Below the pieces are notes generated by a model, which saw nothing but the letters and a program-made list of their open reading frames with translations, did no database searches and was not told the DNA's origin. A stretch of 64,000 nt of DNA from IMG/VR virus record IMGVR_UViG_3300031669_000014, positions 16,565-80,564 of that record. One strand, given 5' to 3'. The stretch comes from a virus. Positions 4,859 through 49,914 of this stretch are shown here, piece after piece (position 1 is the stretch's first letter; each line of letters begins with the position of its first letter). Position numbers and translations under genes: made by a program.

Positions 4859-6193
4859 CTAGTAGTTGATATAGCTATTATCAGGTTTCGCCCCGGTGTA
4901 GGGGTCAGGCTTTGGCTTCTCGTGCTTCCAATTATAACGCTGCGGCTTCGCTTTCTCTTCATCTCTGAACTGCAAGCACTCATAATTCATGGCATATCGC
5001 GCCGCATCAATCGTATGGTTATTCTTGTCTGGATAGTTGGCCTTGAAGTTACCATTTACATCCTTCTCCAACTCGTAGTTCATAAACTCCCTGGCTGTCT
5101 CCGGGCACCGCTTGTCGTCGATAATGATAGCTTCCAGGTCTTGCAGGAACTTGATGCCATACTCTACGCTATCCGGTCCCTTCTTGACCGGCGCCACCCT
5201 GAGCCCATACTGGCATAGCTCATTGATACTCTTCGGTTCCGCTGAGTCTGCCAGGATTGGCTCGTTGGAGGTATTCTCCTGTTCAATATGAGTATATGCT
5301 GAGTGGTTTGAAAGCCCAACCTTGTAGTATTCATGGTAGATAAATAGCCGCTTTAACTTACGGTTATAGCTGCAAACGAGATAAGCAAATGGGTCAATCG
5401 CATACCCGAAGTCCATTCCGCGGCGTATGGTCTCAAACTCTGCTATCTCCTCATCGCTGATTGGCCGGATCTGAACATTGCCAAATACCTCACCTCCGGT
5501 ACCGGTAACCTCTCCAAGGTACTCATGGTTATAAGACGTTTCTTTTGTAGCCTTGAGGTGTTCAGCCTCGGCGATAAACTGCTCACCCAGCCAGGCCGGC
5601 GGGACCGTCAAATAGCTGCTGTGATGCACAAGCCTATCTTCCCGGGTGAGCTGAACCTCCGTATTAACCCAGTTGGCGGCAGACTTTGGCGGGTTGTAGG
5701 TGTAGAACACCACAAATTTAGAACCGCCACGAAGTAGTGTCTGGTTAATCATCCGTATTTCTTCGGTTCCGTTAAACTCATCAACTTCCTCGTACCAGAA
5801 GAACTTGCAATAGCCGCGCCTAAAGGTGAAAGACTTGATTTTCTTCGGATTATCTGCACCCCGGAATAGGATTTTCTGGCCGGTTGGAATATATGTCAGG
5901 CTTAACGGGCTAGTATTCTGATGCCAATACCGTTCCACCCCTAGCGCATCTATTGCCCAGCATAGTTGTACGTATACGCTATCCTTGAGCGTATCCTTGA
6001 CCTTCCGCAGGGCGCAGGCGTTGGCGTTAGGGTCCTTCATTATGCCCAGAATTATTTCTATAGCTGCAAAGGTTGACTTGGTGCTGCCCCGGCCACCTTT
6101 GGCCCAATAATGAGTATGCCCACCTCGTTTGATGTCGGCATGAACCGGGTGGAATGACGGAGCTACTAGGTTTGAGATGCGAATTTCAGCCAT
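4859..6193 (-). CDS. terL: Terminase large subunit, PBSX family
   Basis: GGRGSTKS Walker A, WYEEVDE Walker B, TYNPP, GMDFG and NHTIDAARY nuclease motifs. Confidence 0.95.
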   Translation of the reverse strand: MAEIRISNLVAPSFHPVHADIKRGGHTHYWAKGGRGSTKSTFAAIEIILGIMKDPNANACALRKVKDTLKDSVYVQLCWAIDALGVERYWHQNTSPLSLTYIPTGQKILFRGADNPKKIKSFTFRRGYCKFFWYEEVDEFNGTEEIRMINQTLLRGGSKFVVFYTYNPPKSAANWVNTEVQLTREDRLVHHSSYLTVPPAWLGEQFIAEAEHLKATKETSYNHEYLGEVTGTGGEVFGNVQIRPISDEEIAEFETIRRGMDFGYAIDPFAYLVCSYNRKLKRLFIYHEYYKVGLSNHSAYTHIEQENTSNEPILADSAEPKSINELCQYGLRVAPVKKGPDSVEYGIKFLQDLEAIIIDDKRCPETAREFMNYELEKDVNGNFKANYPDKNNHTIDAARYAMNYECLQFRDEEKAKPQRYNWKHEKPKPDPYTGAKPDNSYINY

Positions 6194-6292
6194 AAAATAT
6201 ACACTCTCACTATCATTTTCTAGCAGAATTAAGCAGAAAAACCGCGTAGTATCCTAAAAGTAAGGATTAATACGGCTTTGAGGCTACTTCCT

Positions 6293-6320
6293 GGTTTACA
6301 TAATGCTGATTAGTGGAACA
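6293..6320 (-). other. dif-like Xer recombination site (phage A)
   Basis: Minus strand TGTTCCACTAA-TCAGCA-TTATGTAAACC: 11-6-11 layout with a XerD-type TTATGTAAA arm. Confidence 0.8.
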
Positions 6321-6326
6321 TGCCCA

Positions 6327-6830
6327 CTATTTTTCAATGTCGTCAATTATCTTTACTGCCAATTCCCCAGTAACATTTAGGTTTTCCGTAAACATGCCCA
6401 GGTGACGGCCAAGAAGTTCCAAAGCCCCTTTCTTGTCGTGGAGCTTGAACTTGACGCTATTGCCATTCTGTGTGGCAGTTTGAGACACTTCGGCAACACA
6501 GGCAAGCTCATCCTCCCCGAGTGCTTCCGAAGGTTCCAGCGACACAGAATCACCGGACCACTTCGCATATTTACCGATATTTGAGAAGCCCATCTTTGCA
6601 AGTTCCGCAACTACCATATCGGCAGTTACAAGGGTGCGTTTCTCCCTATTCTTCATAGCTTCCTGTATTGCGGCCTGAACGTCAACAAAGGTCAACAACC
6701 TCTGACCAATAGATTTAGCTGTCCTAGGTGAATAGCCGGCACGAATTGCAGCCTGAGTAGCATTAAGATCCACAAGATACTCAGCCACAAACATTTTCTG
6801 TTTTGGCGTCAACTCCCTTGCTATCGGCAT
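6327..6830 (-). CDS. terS: Terminase small subunit
   Basis: LTPKQKMFVAEYLVDLNATQAAIRAGYS and KLHDKKGALELLGRHLGMF. Confidence 0.95.
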   Translation of the reverse strand: MPIARELTPKQKMFVAEYLVDLNATQAAIRAGYSPRTAKSIGQRLLTFVDVQAAIQEAMKNREKRTLVTADMVVAELAKMGFSNIGKYAKWSGDSVSLEPSEALGEDELACVAEVSQTATQNGNSVKFKLHDKKGALELLGRHLGMFTENLNVTGELAVKIIDDIEK

Positions 6831-17559: not shown

Positions 17560-17712
17560 TTAACCAACGGTTGTCACCTCCAACGCCCGGTAATACTCCA
17601 CGACCAGCCGGTCAACTACCAAACTCTGCGCTAATATCCCCGGCGCTCCAAGCGTCATCTTCCGCAGCTTCTTTTGTTCCCGGCGAAGTTCGCGGTATAT
17701 GCGGTCAATCAT
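17560..17712 (-). CDS. Spo0E-like small protein (not in the ORF track)
   Basis: 50 aa MIDRIYRELRREQKKL...AQSLVVDRLVVEYY; near-syntenic with the SQELD protein of phage B. Confidence 0.45.
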   Translation of the reverse strand: MIDRIYRELRREQKKLRKMTLGAPGILAQSLVVDRLVVEYYRALEVTTVG

Positions 17713-22730: not shown

Positions 22731-23330
22731 TTCACCCCCTCCAGCCTCTTCGGTTACCATAACTTAAACAACCCTCCCTTCGGCTATTTGATTTTCACAG
22801 GTTTGGAGCCTAGATAAAATTTCATCAAGTGTTCTGCTAGTCTCCCACAGGGAACGTCCCAAAGTATCCAACTGGCGATTGAGCGAATCCAACACAGGGT
22901 AATCAACCTTTCTATGCAATTCACTTCTTATGGCGTCTACCTCTTGTTGCAATGCCCCTATCTGTGCCCACGGAGGACTATTCACTTGGCGGTCACGCTC
23001 CTTTCTCCGGCCTCGCCAGTTAGTTAGAATATCCCTGCCCACAAAACGGACAGTATTTATGAAGCATGTTGTATTTCTTATTCTTGGTTTTGGTTGCTCC
23101 AGTTTTGCAATTTTGTTCATAATTAACTTCCACCACGGAGAAGGTTTTTATACCACTGTATTTTTCGTCAAAGAATATAGCTGTATCAATAAGTGAGGAT
23201 GATTCAATGGTCTCGTTTTCTTTTTTGGTGGAGTTAAATTGTTCCTTGATTTTTTCTTCAATATCTTTAATGCAGGTACACACATTTTCACCCCCTCCGG
23301 CCTCGCCGGTTACCATAACTTAAACAACCC
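22731..23330. repeat. 44-bp direct repeat pair (22731-22774 and 23287-23330)
   Basis: TTCACCCCCTCC.GCCTC..CGGTTACCATAACTTAAACAACCC; partial third copy near 63715-63750. Confidence 0.8.
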
Positions 23331-23418
23331 GTTGAACGTCCACAGCATGACTGTGATGGCTACCGCTGCCACCAGGACGTTGAACCCCTTATCGACGATG
23401 TACCCGATTAACGCATAT

Positions 23419-23895
23419 CTAGCCAACGTCTTGAGGGTTTGCACCTTGCTCCACCTCCTTTGTAAACCTAACCATTTTTAGACATCTTTTTATTAACTGT
23501 GATATTTCTTCCGATATTTTCTCCGGTTCGCCAGTTGGTTCTTCTTCAACATCCTTGTATTTGTAAACAATGCCGCAATTTAAACAAGCCGCAGTAATAA
23601 GTACACCAGCGTCTAGATATTCTGGCCGACCTCCGCATACCGGGCAATTCGGGCCGTCTGCAACTCGGTGGGCCTCGACATGAACCACCGGCCACTCGCC
23701 TATAGGCGTCTGTATCGGCTCCCCCATGCGCACGGTGTATCCGTCCATGTGTATCTTGCTAAGTTTGTAATTGTATAAAATCTGCGTGATAACTTCGTCC
23801 ATGTGTACCCGGGATAGTTTGCCGTAAGCGTTAAGTCGAACGAGATCGTGGATTCTGGCGCGGTCGGTGGCTGTTGGCAATGCGTGGAGTTTCAT
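23419..23895 (-). CDS. Zn-ribbon hypothetical protein
   Basis: CPVCG...CLNCG; AGGAGG RBS. Confidence 0.65.
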   Translation of the reverse strand: MKLHALPTATDRARIHDLVRLNAYGKLSRVHMDEVITQILYNYKLSKIHMDGYTVRMGEPIQTPIGEWPVVHVEAHRVADGPNCPVCGGRPEYLDAGVLITAACLNCGIVYKYKDVEEEPTGEPEKISEEISQLIKRCLKMVRFTKEVEQGANPQDVG

Positions 23896-23906
23896 GGTTT
23901 TACCTC

Positions 23907-24155
23907 CTATACATCGGGACAAGTTGGGATCTTATCGTTTCTGGTTTCTATAACGGAAACCTCATCTGCAAAAAAAATATCTTCAATCGACATATTAAGT
24001 CTTTCAGAGATTAATTTTGCTTCAAACATGGAAATTCTTATGGCTCCAGTTTCCTTCTTATAATATGCCGCTGCCGTTTTTAAACCTAGTAATTCGGCCA
24101 TTTCTATCGCTGAGACGCTTTTATTATTTCTTATTGTGCGAAGTTTTTCATACAT
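23907..24155 (-). CDS. Cro-like XRE regulator
   Basis: 82-aa XRE HTH protein divergent from the repressor. Confidence 0.88.
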   Translation of the reverse strand: MYEKLRTIRNNKSVSAIEMAELLGLKTAAAYYKKETGAIRISMFEAKLISERLNMSIEDIFFADEVSVIETRNDKIPTCPDV

Positions 24156-24175
24156 GCGCTTACCCCCTTTCTGCC

Positions 24176-24285
24176 GTTTCTGTAATGGATACTTTTATTA
24201 TAGTGTCCAATGAAGAAACAGTCAAGTGATATTTGTAAAATAAATTTCTTTATTAGAAACATGCTTTAGTTTCCAGTTTGGATAA
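24176..24285. promoter_or_regulatory. Genetic switch: four 17-bp operators and the lytic promoter
   Basis: GTTTCY-N5-RGAWAC-like palindromes at 24176, 24203, 24244 and 24269 (fifth at 23944); minus-strand TTGACT-17-TATAAT at 24197-24225. Confidence 0.75.
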
Positions 24286-24308
24286 TATATAATTACAAAT
24301 AAACGGGG

Positions 24309-24710
24309 TTGGTAAATGTGGGGATTGGTAAAAGATTGAGAGAATTAAGGGAGCGGGAAGGGCTTACTCAGGAAGAGTTGGGTAAAATAATCAATCAAAA
24401 AAAGTCCAATATCTCCAAATATGAAAATGGCAAATTACAGCCAAGTCTTGAAACAATAGAATCTCTTTTAGGATTCTTTGGAGTTTCGCCTAATTATTTT
24501 TTTAATTATACTCCCCATGCCGAACACAACGAAAAAAATAAAACGGCCTATTTCAAACCAACTAACCAGATCCCAGAAGAGAAACGGAAACTCATAGAAA
24601 AACTTCTGGAATTCAATGATAATGATTACAAAAAAATTGAGGCTATTGCCGAAGTTTTCATTCAGATAGACAGATCAAAGAACGAGCAGGCAGCCGCAAT
24701 GGGAAGCTAA
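24309..24710 (+). CDS. CI-like XRE repressor
   Basis: RLRELRE..GLTQEELG...NISKYENG HTH. Confidence 0.9.
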   Translation: MVNVGIGKRLRELREREGLTQEELGKIINQKKSNISKYENGKLQPSLETIESLLGFFGVSPNYFFNYTPHAEHNEKNKTAYFKPTNQIPEEKRKLIEKLLEFNDNDYKKIEAIAEVFIQIDRSKNEQAAAMGS

Positions 24711-24826
24711 TTCTTTTTCTGCCAAGGTGGATAAGGCGAATCCTGAAGCGAAAAAAATAAGAACCCCCGGAGCCGATCAGAAGGGTTCTCGTACATAAGA
24801 CAAATCACTAAATTAGGAGATGAATT

Positions 24827-24958
24827 GTGTTTATGTGTAATAATTATGACTTACTTATAATTTGCTATAAAAGCGGTCAGATACCGGAGGATGAATGGCA
24901 GGAAATTTTAAAAGACGAGGTATTTTATTGTTATTATCAAAAACAAATAAGGTTATAA
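24827..24958 (+). CDS. Small hypothetical protein (43 aa, not in the ORF track)
   Basis: AGGAGA RBS and GTG start; followed by a terminator. Confidence 0.5.
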   Translation: MFMCNNYDLLIICYKSGQIPEDEWQEILKDEVFYCYYQKQIRL

Positions 24959-24964
24959 AATAAA

Positions 24965-24995
24965 AATAACCCCCTCGTGTGAGGGGGTTTTATTC
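24965..24995. terminator. Bidirectional intrinsic terminator
   Basis: AACCCCCTC-GTGT-GAGGGGGTT flanked by A and T tracts. Confidence 0.8.
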
Positions 24996-25010
24996 TGCGT
25001 CGTAATTTAG

Positions 25011-25039
25011 TTGACTAGCCATATGTTGGGGCGTATAAT
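25011..25039 (+). promoter_or_regulatory. sigmaA promoter (sense RNA)
   Basis: TTGACT-17 nt-TATAAT. Confidence 0.85.
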
Positions 25040-25057
25040 GGAAGGGACAACCATATA

Positions 25058-25137
25058 ATGAAAGTAACCCCCCGGTTAGACCTCCGAAGGGTTACAGGCG
25101 GGACAACCTCACAACAGGCCGGCCCGACGGTTACTGT
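25058..25137 (-). ncRNA. ~80-nt antisense countertranscript
   Basis: Own promoter; two hairpins whose G-U pairs form only on this strand; the second is followed by UUUCAUU. Confidence 0.75.
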
Positions 25138-25143
25138 ACTAAG

Positions 25144-25172
25144 ATTGTAACTTACATTTTTAGTATAGTCAA
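25144..25172 (-). promoter_or_regulatory. sigmaA promoter (antisense RNA)
   Basis: TTGACT-17 nt-TACAAT on the minus strand. Confidence 0.8.
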
Positions 25173-25184
25173 GACAGAATTCCC

Positions 25185-25219
25185 GGCTTTTTGTGAGGTT
25201 CCTCGCAAGAAGCCTTTTT
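25185..25219 (+). terminator. Attenuator (conditional terminator)
   Basis: 13-bp stem plus TTTTT; its 5' arm can instead pair with 25105-25122 (17 of 18 positions). Confidence 0.75.
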
Positions 25220-25610
25220 GATTATCCGAAAAGGTTTCGGGTAAATAGGCTGATAACCAAGCATGCCCGGGTAGTGACCGGGATTATAACCGTTAGATGG
25301 GGATGTTTTTCCTTCCCAGAATTGAAACCGTGCCACGATGCTAACGAACCTATGATGCACCCTGGAAACCGTGGTGTAGAGGCTACGAGCAGATGAGAGA
25401 TGTCACCGATGCTAACCAAGCAGGCTGTAAGATATGGTGGACCTGGGGGCCGTCAAAAGACTAGGTGATGCGGCGTAATAGCCGCCTGTTGAAGGGACGA
25501 CCGACCGAGACTAGGCCAAGTTCCAAGACAGTGTTTTCCCGCCAGCGCGGGATCTCTGTCTCTAAAACTCCCTCCCTCAACCGGCCCCCATCCTAAAATA
25601 ATCACTCCGG
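25220..25610 (+). ncRNA. Long structured non-coding RNA segment (candidate replication primer)
   Basis: Several hairpins and long-range TGGGGGCCG/CGGCCCCCA pairing; no credible ORF. Confidence 0.5.
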
Positions 25611-25619
25611 AGGAATTAC

Positions 25620-26057
25620 ATGCACTACCTAAACACGAAAGAAGCAGCAGCAATCCTAAACTGTGGGACCAAGAATGTTACCCTGATGTGTGCTGCCGGG
25701 AAGTTTCCAGGGTCCAAAAAGGTGATGGGGAAGAAAACGGACGAGTGGCGCATACCGGCCCAGGAAGTAATTGACTACCAGGCTAACAAGGAAGTTGAGG
25801 CCGAAGTTTTGCCGCCTGAAAGCCATGAACTGGTCACGGTTAAGTCTCTGGCTGATTTTTTTATGGATGAACGGAGAAGGAACGATGCTGAACATGATGA
25901 AACAAGGAGAATACTTGAAGAAGAAGTAAAAAGGAGGAATGAAGAAATAATGGAGTTACGCGGGATACTGGCGAAACAGGGGGAAGAAGTCGCGGTAGTT
26001 TGGGGGAAGGTTGCGGAGATTGAAAAGAAAAAGCGCCCGTGGTGGCGCTGGTGGTAG
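25620..26057 (+). CDS. HTH, coiled-coil and aromatic-tail protein (pSK1 Par-like architecture)
   Basis: YLNTKEAAAIL excisionase-type HTH, EEVKRRNEEIMELR coiled coil, KKRPWWRWW tail; GGAGG RBS. Confidence 0.7.
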   Translation: MHYLNTKEAAAILNCGTKNVTLMCAAGKFPGSKKVMGKKTDEWRIPAQEVIDYQANKEVEAEVLPPESHELVTVKSLADFFMDERRRNDAEHDETRRILEEEVKRRNEEIMELRGILAKQGEEVAVVWGKVAEIEKKKRPWWRWW

Positions 26058-47066: not shown

Positions 47067-48632
47067 CTACTGCACCCTCACTTTATGCTTCTCCCGCGAC
47101 CCGCCAATCTGCCGCGCCAGCCAGAAATACACACTGGCATGGGCGAAGTGGTCCGGCCCGGAATGCTCCCACGTCTTATAGCCCTTCTCCTCATCATGAA
47201 ACAAATACATATTCTCCCAATGCTCCAAAAACGATTCCCCGCGCTTTAACCCTCCCCCGCCTATTAACCGAGGCTCGGAAGGACTAATAAACACCCTCAG
47301 CCGGTTCTCTGCATACTCCGCGATTACCCGGTCTATTACTTCCGTCCTCATAGCGGAAACAGTCTGCTCCTTATAATTCACCGTGTAAATATCCTGCGAT
47401 CCCGGCATCCTGGTTGTCGGCGACCGGTAGTAGCACAGCTTCACCCGCCCCGGCCACGCCGCCCGGAACTCCTTCGCCTTCGTAGTCTCAGGCATGGCGT
47501 CGATAACCACGTGCCGGCAGTCATAAAGCCGCATGAAAGCGTCCAGCTCGTTCCAATTAGAGGTGCATACCTTGAATATCCCCTCCCGATTGCCGATTAC
47601 CACATGCAAGACCTGCCCAACATCTACACCCATAAACACGTCAAAAGTATCCGCCCGGGCATCAGACAGGTTTCTTAAAATAACATCCCTGTTTATAGTC
47701 GAATCCGTACCTAACCACGGAAGCCCTAAAACAAAGTTATAAAAAAACTGCGGGCTCTCGTTAAGCTCATCCTCAATCAGCGACGAGCACGGTATCCAGG
47801 GGGCCATCATCTGCGACACCCAATACCCGGATATCTCCCGGGAGGGGTATTTTGCCACCCACTGCCCCTGCCGGCGCATCTCGTCCGTTATCTCCCGCCC
47901 GCAGTGAATACAGATATACCTCTTATTGGAAAAATCCACATTGGCCGGCCAGTCCAAAAACTGCCACCCGCCAAAATTACCCCGACCACACTCACACTTG
48001 ACAAACCAATGCTTTTGATCGCTTCGCAGCCAACCCTCGTCAACCCCCCTCTTAGGCGCCGAAGGGTTAGAAAAAAACCACCTGCGCTTATACTGCGAGT
48101 GACCCAGGCGGGATTTATACGTCCCGATAACCTCGAGGTTAGACCGGTCTACCTCGTCATGCACCGTCACATCCCCGGTGGTCATAATACCTTCTTTCTC
48201 CGACATCGTGCCGCCGAAGAACCAAAAACCACGCCCTAACTGCTTCTGCGTGATAGTATCCCGCTCCATCTTAAACCCATTGGCCTTAATTATCGGGTCT
48301 ACCTTAGACGGAACAAACTTCTGAACGTCATTCATCAGCGTGGGCAGGGTGTAAATTATGTTATAACCAAATCGCTCCAATAGATAAAGGCACTTAAAAA
48401 TGAATATGGTCGATACGCCAATCTGTGCCGCCTTGCGGACATACAGCCTCTCCGAGAAGTCCTCCCATATACCCCTCTGAAATTCATGTTTCTCCAAAGT
48501 CACCGGCACACCGTTCTCATTCACCATGCCGTCTACCCAATTCAAAATACTGCGGCGCTTTTTTTTCTCCCCAAGAAGAATGCAAAGTTCCTCTTTTTGC
48601 TTGCGGGTCAGATTATTCGTCAAGTTCCTCAT
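47067..48632 (-). CDS. terL: Terminase large subunit, GpA-like
   Basis: RKAAQIGVS Walker A, HDEVD, SNP, Zn finger, FYNFVLGLP, GVDVG and DHFAHA. Confidence 0.9.
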   Translation of the reverse strand: MRNLTNNLTRKQKEELCILLGEKKKRRSILNWVDGMVNENGVPVTLEKHEFQRGIWEDFSERLYVRKAAQIGVSTIFIFKCLYLLERFGYNIIYTLPTLMNDVQKFVPSKVDPIIKANGFKMERDTITQKQLGRGFWFFGGTMSEKEGIMTTGDVTVHDEVDRSNLEVIGTYKSRLGHSQYKRRWFFSNPSAPKRGVDEGWLRSDQKHWFVKCECGRGNFGGWQFLDWPANVDFSNKRYICIHCGREITDEMRRQGQWVAKYPSREISGYWVSQMMAPWIPCSSLIEDELNESPQFFYNFVLGLPWLGTDSTINRDVILRNLSDARADTFDVFMGVDVGQVLHVVIGNREGIFKVCTSNWNELDAFMRLYDCRHVVIDAMPETTKAKEFRAAWPGRVKLCYYRSPTTRMPGSQDIYTVNYKEQTVSAMRTEVIDRVIAEYAENRLRVFISPSEPRLIGGGGLKRGESFLEHWENMYLFHDEEKGYKTWEHSGPDHFAHASVYFWLARQIGGSREKHKVRVQ

Positions 48633-48780: not shown

Positions 48781-48966
48781 AAAACACCTTCTTTCTAATA
48801 GTTGGAAATTGGAAATGTGTGAAAATGGTATTTTTTTCACGGGGGAGGGACTCCAATACGCAAGGGGGTGGGTGCTTTTCTAGGGTGGTGGGTGTACCCC
48901 CTCCCCCCCCTCCCCCTATGCAACAGCATGGTAACCGACCCCATGAATTACGCAGAACGAGTGTTT

Positions 48967-48994
48967 TGTTCCACTAATCAGCATTATGTAACCT
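48967..48994 (+). other. dif-like Xer recombination site (phage B)
   Basis: TGTTCCACTAA-TCAGCA-TTATGTAACCT; 26 of 28 identical to the phage A site. Confidence 0.8.
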
Positions 48995-49110
48995 AAAGCA
49001 AAACCCTGTAAGCCTTGGTAGAGTAGGCATACAGGGTCTCAATAGTCTCACTTGTGTAGTTGCTACGCTATTTATGCTATAGAATTACGCTATGTCGCAT
49101 AGTGTGGCTA

Positions 49111-49692
49111 TTACTTTTGCAGTTCGGCTATCCGCCCTTCTAACTCTTCGTCAGTAAGTTTCGACGCCTGGTGTTTAATGGCCAGCTCGCCGGTTAGGCT
49201 CTGATCAACCTTATCTGTGAACATAGCCAAGTGCCGGCCAATCAATTCCAAGGCTTTCATCTTGTCGTGAGGCTTAACCTTGATGCCATCCCGGGTTTGG
49301 CTTACCTCTGCCAGGACCGAGCCGTCAACCTGGGACGATGGCTTCACCTGTACAGCGGCGCGGATTAGCTTAACCGGTTCCCCGCTTTCATTGTCAATCA
49401 CAGTCGCTTCTTCTGGGCCAAACTCCATAAAATCCTTAATATCAGTAAAGGCGATCTTGGCTAATTCTTTAAGCACTCGATCAGCTGTAATTTCCGTACG
49501 TTGTTCACGTTCTTTTTTAGCTTGCTCAATAACTCCCTGTATTTCAGGTTTCCTCAAGTTTTCTTCTCCAATAGAATAAGCTGTTTTAGCCGAATATCCT
49601 GCCCGAATTGCCGCCTGTGTAGCGTTCAAATCTATGAGATAGTTTTCGACAAATGCTTGCTGTTTTGGCGTCAGCTCCCGTCCTGCCGGCAT
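49111..49692 (-). CDS. terS: Terminase small subunit
   Basis: LTPKQQAFVENYLIDLNATQAAIRAGYS; GAAGGA RBS. Confidence 0.95.
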   Translation of the reverse strand: MPAGRELTPKQQAFVENYLIDLNATQAAIRAGYSAKTAYSIGEENLRKPEIQGVIEQAKKEREQRTEITADRVLKELAKIAFTDIKDFMEFGPEEATVIDNESGEPVKLIRAAVQVKPSSQVDGSVLAEVSQTRDGIKVKPHDKMKALELIGRHLAMFTDKVDQSLTGELAIKHQASKLTDEELEGRIAELQK

Positions 49693-49914
49693 TTCCTTCA
49701 CCTCCAAAAATAATTCACACTTCCACCTATTCCCACGCCTCACAGCTTCCCTTGTGCGCCCCGCAAACTATCCCGCTAAGATGTTTCTACAAGATAATAC
49801 CCGTGTCTTGTCCGCTTGATTCTTCTGCCTAGCCGCTTATACTCCTGTGCTTCCCGCTTGTTAAGTCTTATCATTTTCCTTCACCCCGTTCCTTATTTAC
49901 ACCAAGCCATGTGT

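Follow-up and report, generated by a model that had tools for sequence, protein, structure and literature searches.

A dif-like site beside the terminase genes of integrase-less tailed phages, a putative target for host Xer recombinases

Described elements that rely on Xer-type sites

Recombination sites resembling the chromosomal dif, whose core is 28 bp made of two 11-bp arms in partial dyad symmetry around a 6-bp spacer, have been described on several kinds of mobile DNA. Plasmid multimer-resolution sites, such as cer of ColE1 and psi of pSC101, hold a dif-like core on an extrachromosomal element that encodes no recombinase and relies on host XerC and XerD, with accessory sequences beside the core imposing resolution selectivity. 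Integrative mobile elements exploiting Xer (IMEX), which include CTX-phi, VGJ-phi, TLC-phi, the dif-type DJR phages, and the gonococcal island, likewise present a dif-like site to host XerCD in the absence of an integrase, though the known IMEX phages are filamentous or tailless and are found integrated at dif, often in direct-repeat arrays (PMC5357621, PMC6744903, PMC12715192). Bacteriophage P1 is a plasmid prophage that is kept monomeric by recombination at a single site, but with its own recombinase (Cre) and a 34-bp loxP site unrelated to dif (PMC2409434). loxP lies a few kb from pac, so it can also circularise terminally redundant DNA. Moreover, the plasmid prophages of Bacillus and Clostridium are tailed temperate phages that replicate as circular plasmids and need dimer resolution, and most of these carry one or two Xer-family recombinase genes (PMC8026635), while the pdif modules of Acinetobacter display several dif-like sites in alternating orientation on mobile DNA, with module exchange at such sites (PMC12907356). 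Our literature searches thus found Xer exploitation described for plasmids, filamentous and tailless phages, and genomic islands, but no report of it for tailed phages, nor of a tailed phage with a host-type dif site at the terminase junction.

Here, we analysed a stretch of 64,000 nucleotides (the window), which corresponds to bases 16565-80564 of the 80,564-bp IMG/VR virus record IMGVR_UViG_3300031669_000014, and in which two related tailed phage units each carry one dif-like site close to the small-terminase gene (terS). As with cer and psi, the XerC-type arm departs from the dif consensus, and the spacer of the two sites differs from those of the chromosomal dif sites found. However, the carriers are ~42-kb tailed temperate phages of Bacillota rather than small enterobacterial plasmids, the spacer is 6 bp and dif-like, the position is fixed at the terS-terL junction, and no conserved accessory region of ~180 bp is evident, as the flanks of the two sites are unrelated and share only a hairpin of different sequence on the XerD-arm side. 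In common with IMEX, there is a dif-like site and no element-encoded integrase, but the sites are intact inside the phage genomes, no integrated copy was found in the collections searched (with an unidentified host, weak evidence), and the two sites on the record are inverted. In contrast to P1, no phage-encoded tyrosine recombinase (PF00589) was matched in the record, and the site, which lies right after terS, resembles that of the host. In comparison with the plasmid prophages of Bacillus and Clostridium, the phages here carry only the site, whereas in comparison with pdif modules there is one site per phage unit, no module bracketed by a pair of sites, and a different phylum, with the inverted pair spanning a whole 42.7-kb unit.

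Two dif-like sites at the terminase junction

The sequence TGTTCCACTAA-TCAGCA-TTATGTAA is found at 6293-6320 on the - strand (the 28-mer TGTTCCACTAATCAGCATTATGTAAACC, site A) and at 48967-48994 on the + strand (TGTTCCACTAATCAGCATTATGTAACCT, site B), with the two copies agreeing at 26 of 28 positions and sharing 25 contiguous identical bases. None of 100 dinucleotide-preserving shuffles gave a match at up to 3 mismatches, and self-BLAST of the whole record showed no alignment around either site beyond these 25 bases. The observation of the earlier note, which had described a dif-like 28-mer with a 26/28 copy, unrelated flanks, a hairpin beyond each TTATGT arm, and no visible integrase, is therefore confirmed. 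Two points were missing from it, namely that the copies are inverted relative to each other, although nearly all genes around both run on the - strand, and that each copy lies between terS and the large-terminase gene (terL) of one of two units. In fact, the self-comparison revealed two collinear mosaic phage units with a period of about 42.7 kb that share patches of 70-96% identity.

In unit A, terS (6327-6830, - strand; phrog_51, Terminase_2 type) has its stop codon 6 nt before the site, and terL (4859-6193, - strand) belongs to phrog_3717/phrog_2. Site A has the XerC-type arm TGTTCCACTAA, the spacer TCAGCA, and the XerD-type arm TTATGTAAACC, and reads from the XerC to the XerD arm in the direction of transcription. 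In unit B, terS (49111-49743, - strand; phrog_51) has its stop codon 116 nt before the site, and terL (47067-48632, - strand) is of the GpA type (PF05876/phrog_675), a different family from terL of unit A, with its closest homologues being 64-82% identical. Site B, TGTTCCACTAA-TCAGCA-TTATGTAACCT, is inverted relative to the genes. A hairpin lies just beyond the TTATGT arm in both units. That of unit A (6238-6279, - strand) lies about 13 nt beyond the XerD-type arm, is followed by a U-run, and is terminator-like, whereas that of unit B (49000-49040, - strand) has an 11-bp stem followed by UUUUGCUUU and is probably the terS(B) terminator, though it too lies on the XerD-arm side of the site. Moreover, a G-run/C-run inverted repeat lies between site B and terL(B) (48840-48920), in which a G-run on the - strand (GGGGGAGGGGGGGGGAGGGGG) is paired with an upstream C/G-run. 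Similar long G-runs follow the site in the direction of transcription, whatever its orientation, in the relatives L088 (500-580) and L214 (2330-2400) and in the unrelated phage contig L261 (790-820), whereas units A and G115 (a circular relative, below) lack them. They may be a cos or late-operon element, but a role as FtsK/SpoIIIE-orienting (KOPS-like) words was rejected, since their polarity follows the genes and not the orientation of the site.

To establish whether these sites resemble genuine dif, a degenerate pattern built from the phage sites was run over the metagenome and GTDB genome collections. Apart from phage relatives, this returned sites of the form ACTTCC(G/C/T)ATAA-TGAGCA-TTATGTAAACT in metagenome-assembled genomes of Syntrophomonadaceae and Peptococcaceae, and high-GC sites of the Actinomycetales type ending in TTATGTCAAGT. 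Each of five genomes checked holds exactly one such site. In a family-wide scan, 62 of 107 Syntrophomonadaceae genomes have exactly one site, ACTTCCNATAA-TGA(A/G)CA-TTATGTAAACT, and never two, with no hits to the reversed control pattern, which is the behaviour of the chromosomal dif. Here, the XerD arm TTATGTAAACT is invariant (62/62), the spacer is mostly TGAACA or TGAGCA, and arm positions 1-2 and 7 vary. Eight of the 62 sites lie within 140 nt of a contig end (e.g., G024:C34:1-28, G030:C19:1-28, G001:C69:45-72, and G102:C125:38-65, given as genome, contig, and position), two of them exactly at the end, which is far more than the lengths of the contigs predict and suggests population-level variation or repeated dif-like copies (integrated Xer-exploiting elements) at dif in this family.

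Against this consensus, sites A and B each match 19 of 23 specified positions, a score reached by only 1 of 60 simulated 80-kb sequences, while the next best hit in the record scores 17. The site is thus a close mimic of a Bacillota dif, with one strong site per ~42-kb unit. It has the 11-6-11 layout, the arms match each other at 6 of 11 positions as an inverted repeat, and the XerD arm (TTATGTAAAC as the Bacillota type) matches the invariant Syntrophomonadaceae arm at 10/11 positions in A and 9/11 in B. In the XerC arm, the core TTCC and TAA are kept, whereas the outer TG and positions 7-8 differ. Positions 1-2 and 7 also vary among host sites, and one Syntrophomonadaceae genome (G032) has as its only dif match TGTTCCGATAA-TGAACA-TTATGTAAACT (contig C176; L246, 1485-1512), the XerC arm of which is identical to that of phages L088 and L214, showing that the phage-type TGT start also occurs in a chromosomal-type site.

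Conservation of the site and the lifestyle of its carriers

The earlier note had set absence of conservation in related phages as a ground for refuting its reading, but the site is in fact kept at the same place in relatives, even where terS and terL belong to other families. In L087/L212, an 89-95% identical relative of unit A, the site TGTACCGCTAA-TCAGCA-TTATGTAAACT lies 6 nt after the terS stop, with both XerC-arm changes at positions that also vary among host dif sites. In L206, the TerS of which is only about 55% identical to that of A, 27 of 28 bases are kept, and L218, an independent contig from another sample, reproduces the terS(B)-site-terL(B) arrangement at 99.9% identity. Two more distant mosaic relatives, L088 and L214, carry TGTTCCGATAA-TGAGCA-TTATGT.AC.. 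about 30 nt after terS (phrog_309 type in L214), with 2-2.6 kb of extra ORFs before terL. A further relative is G115 (IMGVR_UViG_3300031669_000048), which has 47,914 bp with a 127-bp terminal overlap, i.e., a closed circle, is rated complete, and shares many 80-97% identical patches with both units. It has a single site, TGTTCCTATAA-TGAGTA-TTATGTCAACT, which scores 20/23 against the Syntrophomonadaceae consensus and lies 45 nt after a terS of a different family (GP3_package, phrog_606), and is followed by a strong hairpin, an HNH gene, and a Terminase_6-type terL. The site is thus within 6-50 nt after terS in L087/L212, L206, L088, L214, and G115, their differences fall at positions that also vary among host dif sites, and the inner TTATGT is invariant in all phage sites.

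Outside this clade, a further scan found dif-like sites beside terminase genes in three unrelated phage lineages, with the order being terS (phrog_606), site, and terL (phrog_38) in L265, a terS-like gene and then the site in L263/L264, and an ORF, the site, a G-run, and then terL in L261. In contrast, megablast of both regions against 50,697 phage records found nothing, and an exact-arm scan of IMG/VR gave only three copies of one chance match inside a coding region of an unrelated AT-rich phage. Nor is the site a general companion of phrog_51 terS genes, as in 118 terS-homologue loci the rate of generic XerD-arm matches downstream of terS was no higher than elsewhere (4 in 99.8 kb against 15 in 577.6 kb), with three of the four being the known relatives.

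HMM searches found no tyrosine recombinase, serine recombinase, or DDE transposase (PF00589, PF00239, or PF00665) in the 80.5-kb record, and none of these in the complete circular G115, whereas phages with 66-71% identical TerL(A) but no dif-like site do carry integrases. Both the record and G115 have a cI-type HTH_3 repressor followed by a gene for an excisionase-type HTH_17 domain plus a long coiled coil, and in G115 two replication-initiator genes lie between them. The left end of the record begins inside a gene whose last 52 codons weakly resemble the winged-helix end of such initiators, and a second, DnaD-like initiator sits in the early operon. The HTH_17 gene is conserved directly after the rep position in all three units (window 25620-26057, L003:314-784, and L256:9051-9557, all + strand), and could encode a partition or copy-control protein, or an accessory factor for Xer recombination. 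HNH endonuclease genes interrupt or abut essential genes in relatives (L214:4061-6461 and L256:7965-9090), with an N-terminal terL fragment (phrog_3717) followed by an HNH gene in L214, and with an HNH domain at the C-terminus of the first replication-initiator ORF in G115, in addition to the HNH gene right after its dif-like site. No ParAB-type partition genes were recognised, and unit B as assembled lacks the rep gene. On the whole, this is the profile of a phage-plasmid that lacks its own resolvase, although the plasmid state is inferred from gene content and from the circular relative.

Independent support is given by Bacillus phage IEBH (NC_011167.1; L269), which a survey of plasmid prophages lists without a recombinase (PMC8026635). 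Here, ACTGCCGATAA-GAATGG-TTATGTAAACA lies at 17621-17648 in a gene-free gap 630 nt upstream of terS and matches 17 of 19 arm positions, which none of 60 simulations reached.

As for the record itself, the natural unit is a circle of about 42-48 kb (as in G115), and the 80.5 kb join two different units head to tail (whole record; window 23588-25620 and L003:1-800). The right end of the record corresponds to window position 23588 of the other unit, matching window 23295-23588 at 88.5%, and the left end starts inside the rep-like gene, which is followed by a second copy of the HTH_17 coiled-coil gene. This may be a real heterodimer or an assembler's walk through two co-occurring relatives, with A-like and B contigs occurring separately in the sample behind L212 and L218. 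A Xer-made cointegrate or an IMEX-style tandem array was considered but rejected, because such products carry direct repeats and these sites are inverted. If the record is one molecule, Xer action on the inverted sites would flip 42.7 kb rather than resolve it.

Multimer resolution and its alternatives

In our preferred reading, to which we assign a probability of about 0.55, the site is a putative target for the host's XerC/XerD-type recombinases (RipX/CodV in Bacillota) that keeps a plasmid-type prophage as single circles. Since these phages encode no recombinase but have a cI-type repressor, and since G115 carries rep genes beside it, they most likely persist as circular plasmid prophages. 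When two copies fuse by homologous recombination, host XerC would bind the TGTTCCACTAA arm and XerD the TTATGTAAAC arm of both directly repeated sites, and the two proteins would exchange strands across the 6-bp spacer and return the dimer to monomers, as cer does for ColE1 and Cre-loxP does for P1. What our analysis establishes directly is the sequence, its single-copy status, its match to host dif, its conservation and position, and the lack of recombinases, while Xer binding, the plasmid state, and the resolution reaction are inferences. The earlier note's interpretation, that these tailed phages borrow host Xer, most simply to resolve plasmid-prophage dimers, is thus partly supported, the dif-like nature strongly so and the dimer resolution by inference only. 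For sites A and B, the spacer, read without the dif of the unidentified host, leans towards resolution, because TCAGCA was not found in any Bacillota-type dif of 185,579 species genomes or of a 401-genome phylum sample, which fits a site that recombines with itself rather than with the chromosome. There are, however, features that sit less well with this reading. No conserved accessory sequence flanks the core, unlike cer and psi, and the outer half of the XerD arm is looser in the phages than in host dif. Moreover, sites A, B, and L206 share an identical non-consensus XerC arm and spacer although their flanks or terS genes have diverged, and the spacers of all the phage sites stay within one or two bases of host spacers. 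Self-resolution alone does not require this, which hints at a common partner such as the host dif.

The main alternative, which we consider unlikely but not excluded, is that the site is an attP and the phages are tailed IMEX elements that integrate into the host dif by host XerCD, in which case terL would lie at one end of the prophage and terS at the other. In its favour are the absence of any recombinase, the closeness to host dif in both arms and the spacer, the shared arm and spacer of A, B, and L206 (as if they track one partner), the integrases of relatives without the site, the excisionase-like HTH_17 gene in the lysogeny module, the dif sites near contig ends in Syntrophomonadaceae, which suggest variable DNA at dif, and the known existence of IMEX tandem arrays (PMC12715192). 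In addition, L088 and L214 share 21-23 contiguous bases with dif of Syntrophomonadaceae and Peptococcaceae, including the TGAGCA spacer, which equals that of some Syntrophomonadaceae and a Peptococcaceae genome. Conversely, no integrated copy or hybrid site was found, also among the metagenome hits, in that the whole-GTDB pattern scan gave no locus with DNA similarity to the phage, no close DNA match was present in 125 Syntrophomonadia genomes, and only 51-52% identical TerL homologues without dif-like sites nearby were recovered, though with an unidentified host such absence is weak evidence. Furthermore, no Bacillota-type dif with a TCAGCA spacer was found in the genomes scanned, the rep genes of G115 and apparently of unit A fit a free replicon better, an attP between terS and terL would split the packaging operon, and all copies seen are intact sites in phage context, with G115 being a closed circle. 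The two roles are not exclusive, as a plasmid-borne site with the chromosome's spacer will also recombine with dif.

Less likely still is a functionless relic, such as a piece of host dif picked up in a past event or a recombination scar at a mosaic junction. Between A and its 95%-identical relative L087, the site (3 changes in 28) is indeed no better conserved than the neighbouring intergenic DNA, and the terS-terL gap is a hot spot for insertions such as HNH genes and extra ORFs. Against this, however, are the 25 identical bases of A and B amid unalignable flanks, the 27/28 identity in L206 despite 55% TerS identity, the presence of the site in every member of the recombinase-less clade examined and at the same place in unrelated phages, and the confinement of changes to positions that also vary in working host dif sites. 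A packaging signal (pac, cos, or a TerS binding site) resembling dif by chance is the weakest reading, for although the site always lies beside terS and before terL, with G-rich runs that could belong to a cos region nearby in unit B, L088, L214, and L261, such a signal should co-vary with the terminase that reads it, whereas the same dif-type sequence accompanies at least three unrelated terS families (phrog_51, phrog_309, and phrog_606) and three terL families (phrog_3717, GpA, and phrog_38) in both orientations, shows no general link to phrog_51 terS across the 118 loci, and differs between phages in the pattern of host-dif variation rather than of terS divergence.

A broader and more tentative possibility, which we regard as doubtful on present evidence, is that recombinase-less tailed temperate phages of anaerobic and spore-forming Bacillota form a recurrent, so far undescribed class that hands all its site-specific recombination to host XerCD through a dif mimic placed immediately downstream of terS. 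Because headful packaging starts in or near terS, this position would put the site in both terminally redundant ends of the first headful, and host Xer could then circularise the injected DNA (as Cre-loxP does for P1), resolve prophage dimers, and, where the spacer equals the host's, allow reversible insertion at dif. IEBH, in which the site lies upstream of terS, does not fit the circularisation idea, though its site makes the use of host Xer testable in a cultured Bacillus system.

Plasmid prophages are usually said to bring their own Xer-like enzyme (PMC8026635), whereas here a host-type dif mimic lies at the terminase junction of tailed phages in which no recombinase was found. If these sites work, they explain how temperate tailed phages with a repressor but no integrase maintain lysogeny. 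They would also give a simple sequence marker, a dif mimic at the terS-terL junction, for recognising such phages in metagenomes, and would offer a new handle for host prediction, since the site must suit the host's XerCD, with the site described here pointing to Syntrophomonadaceae-like Bacillota.
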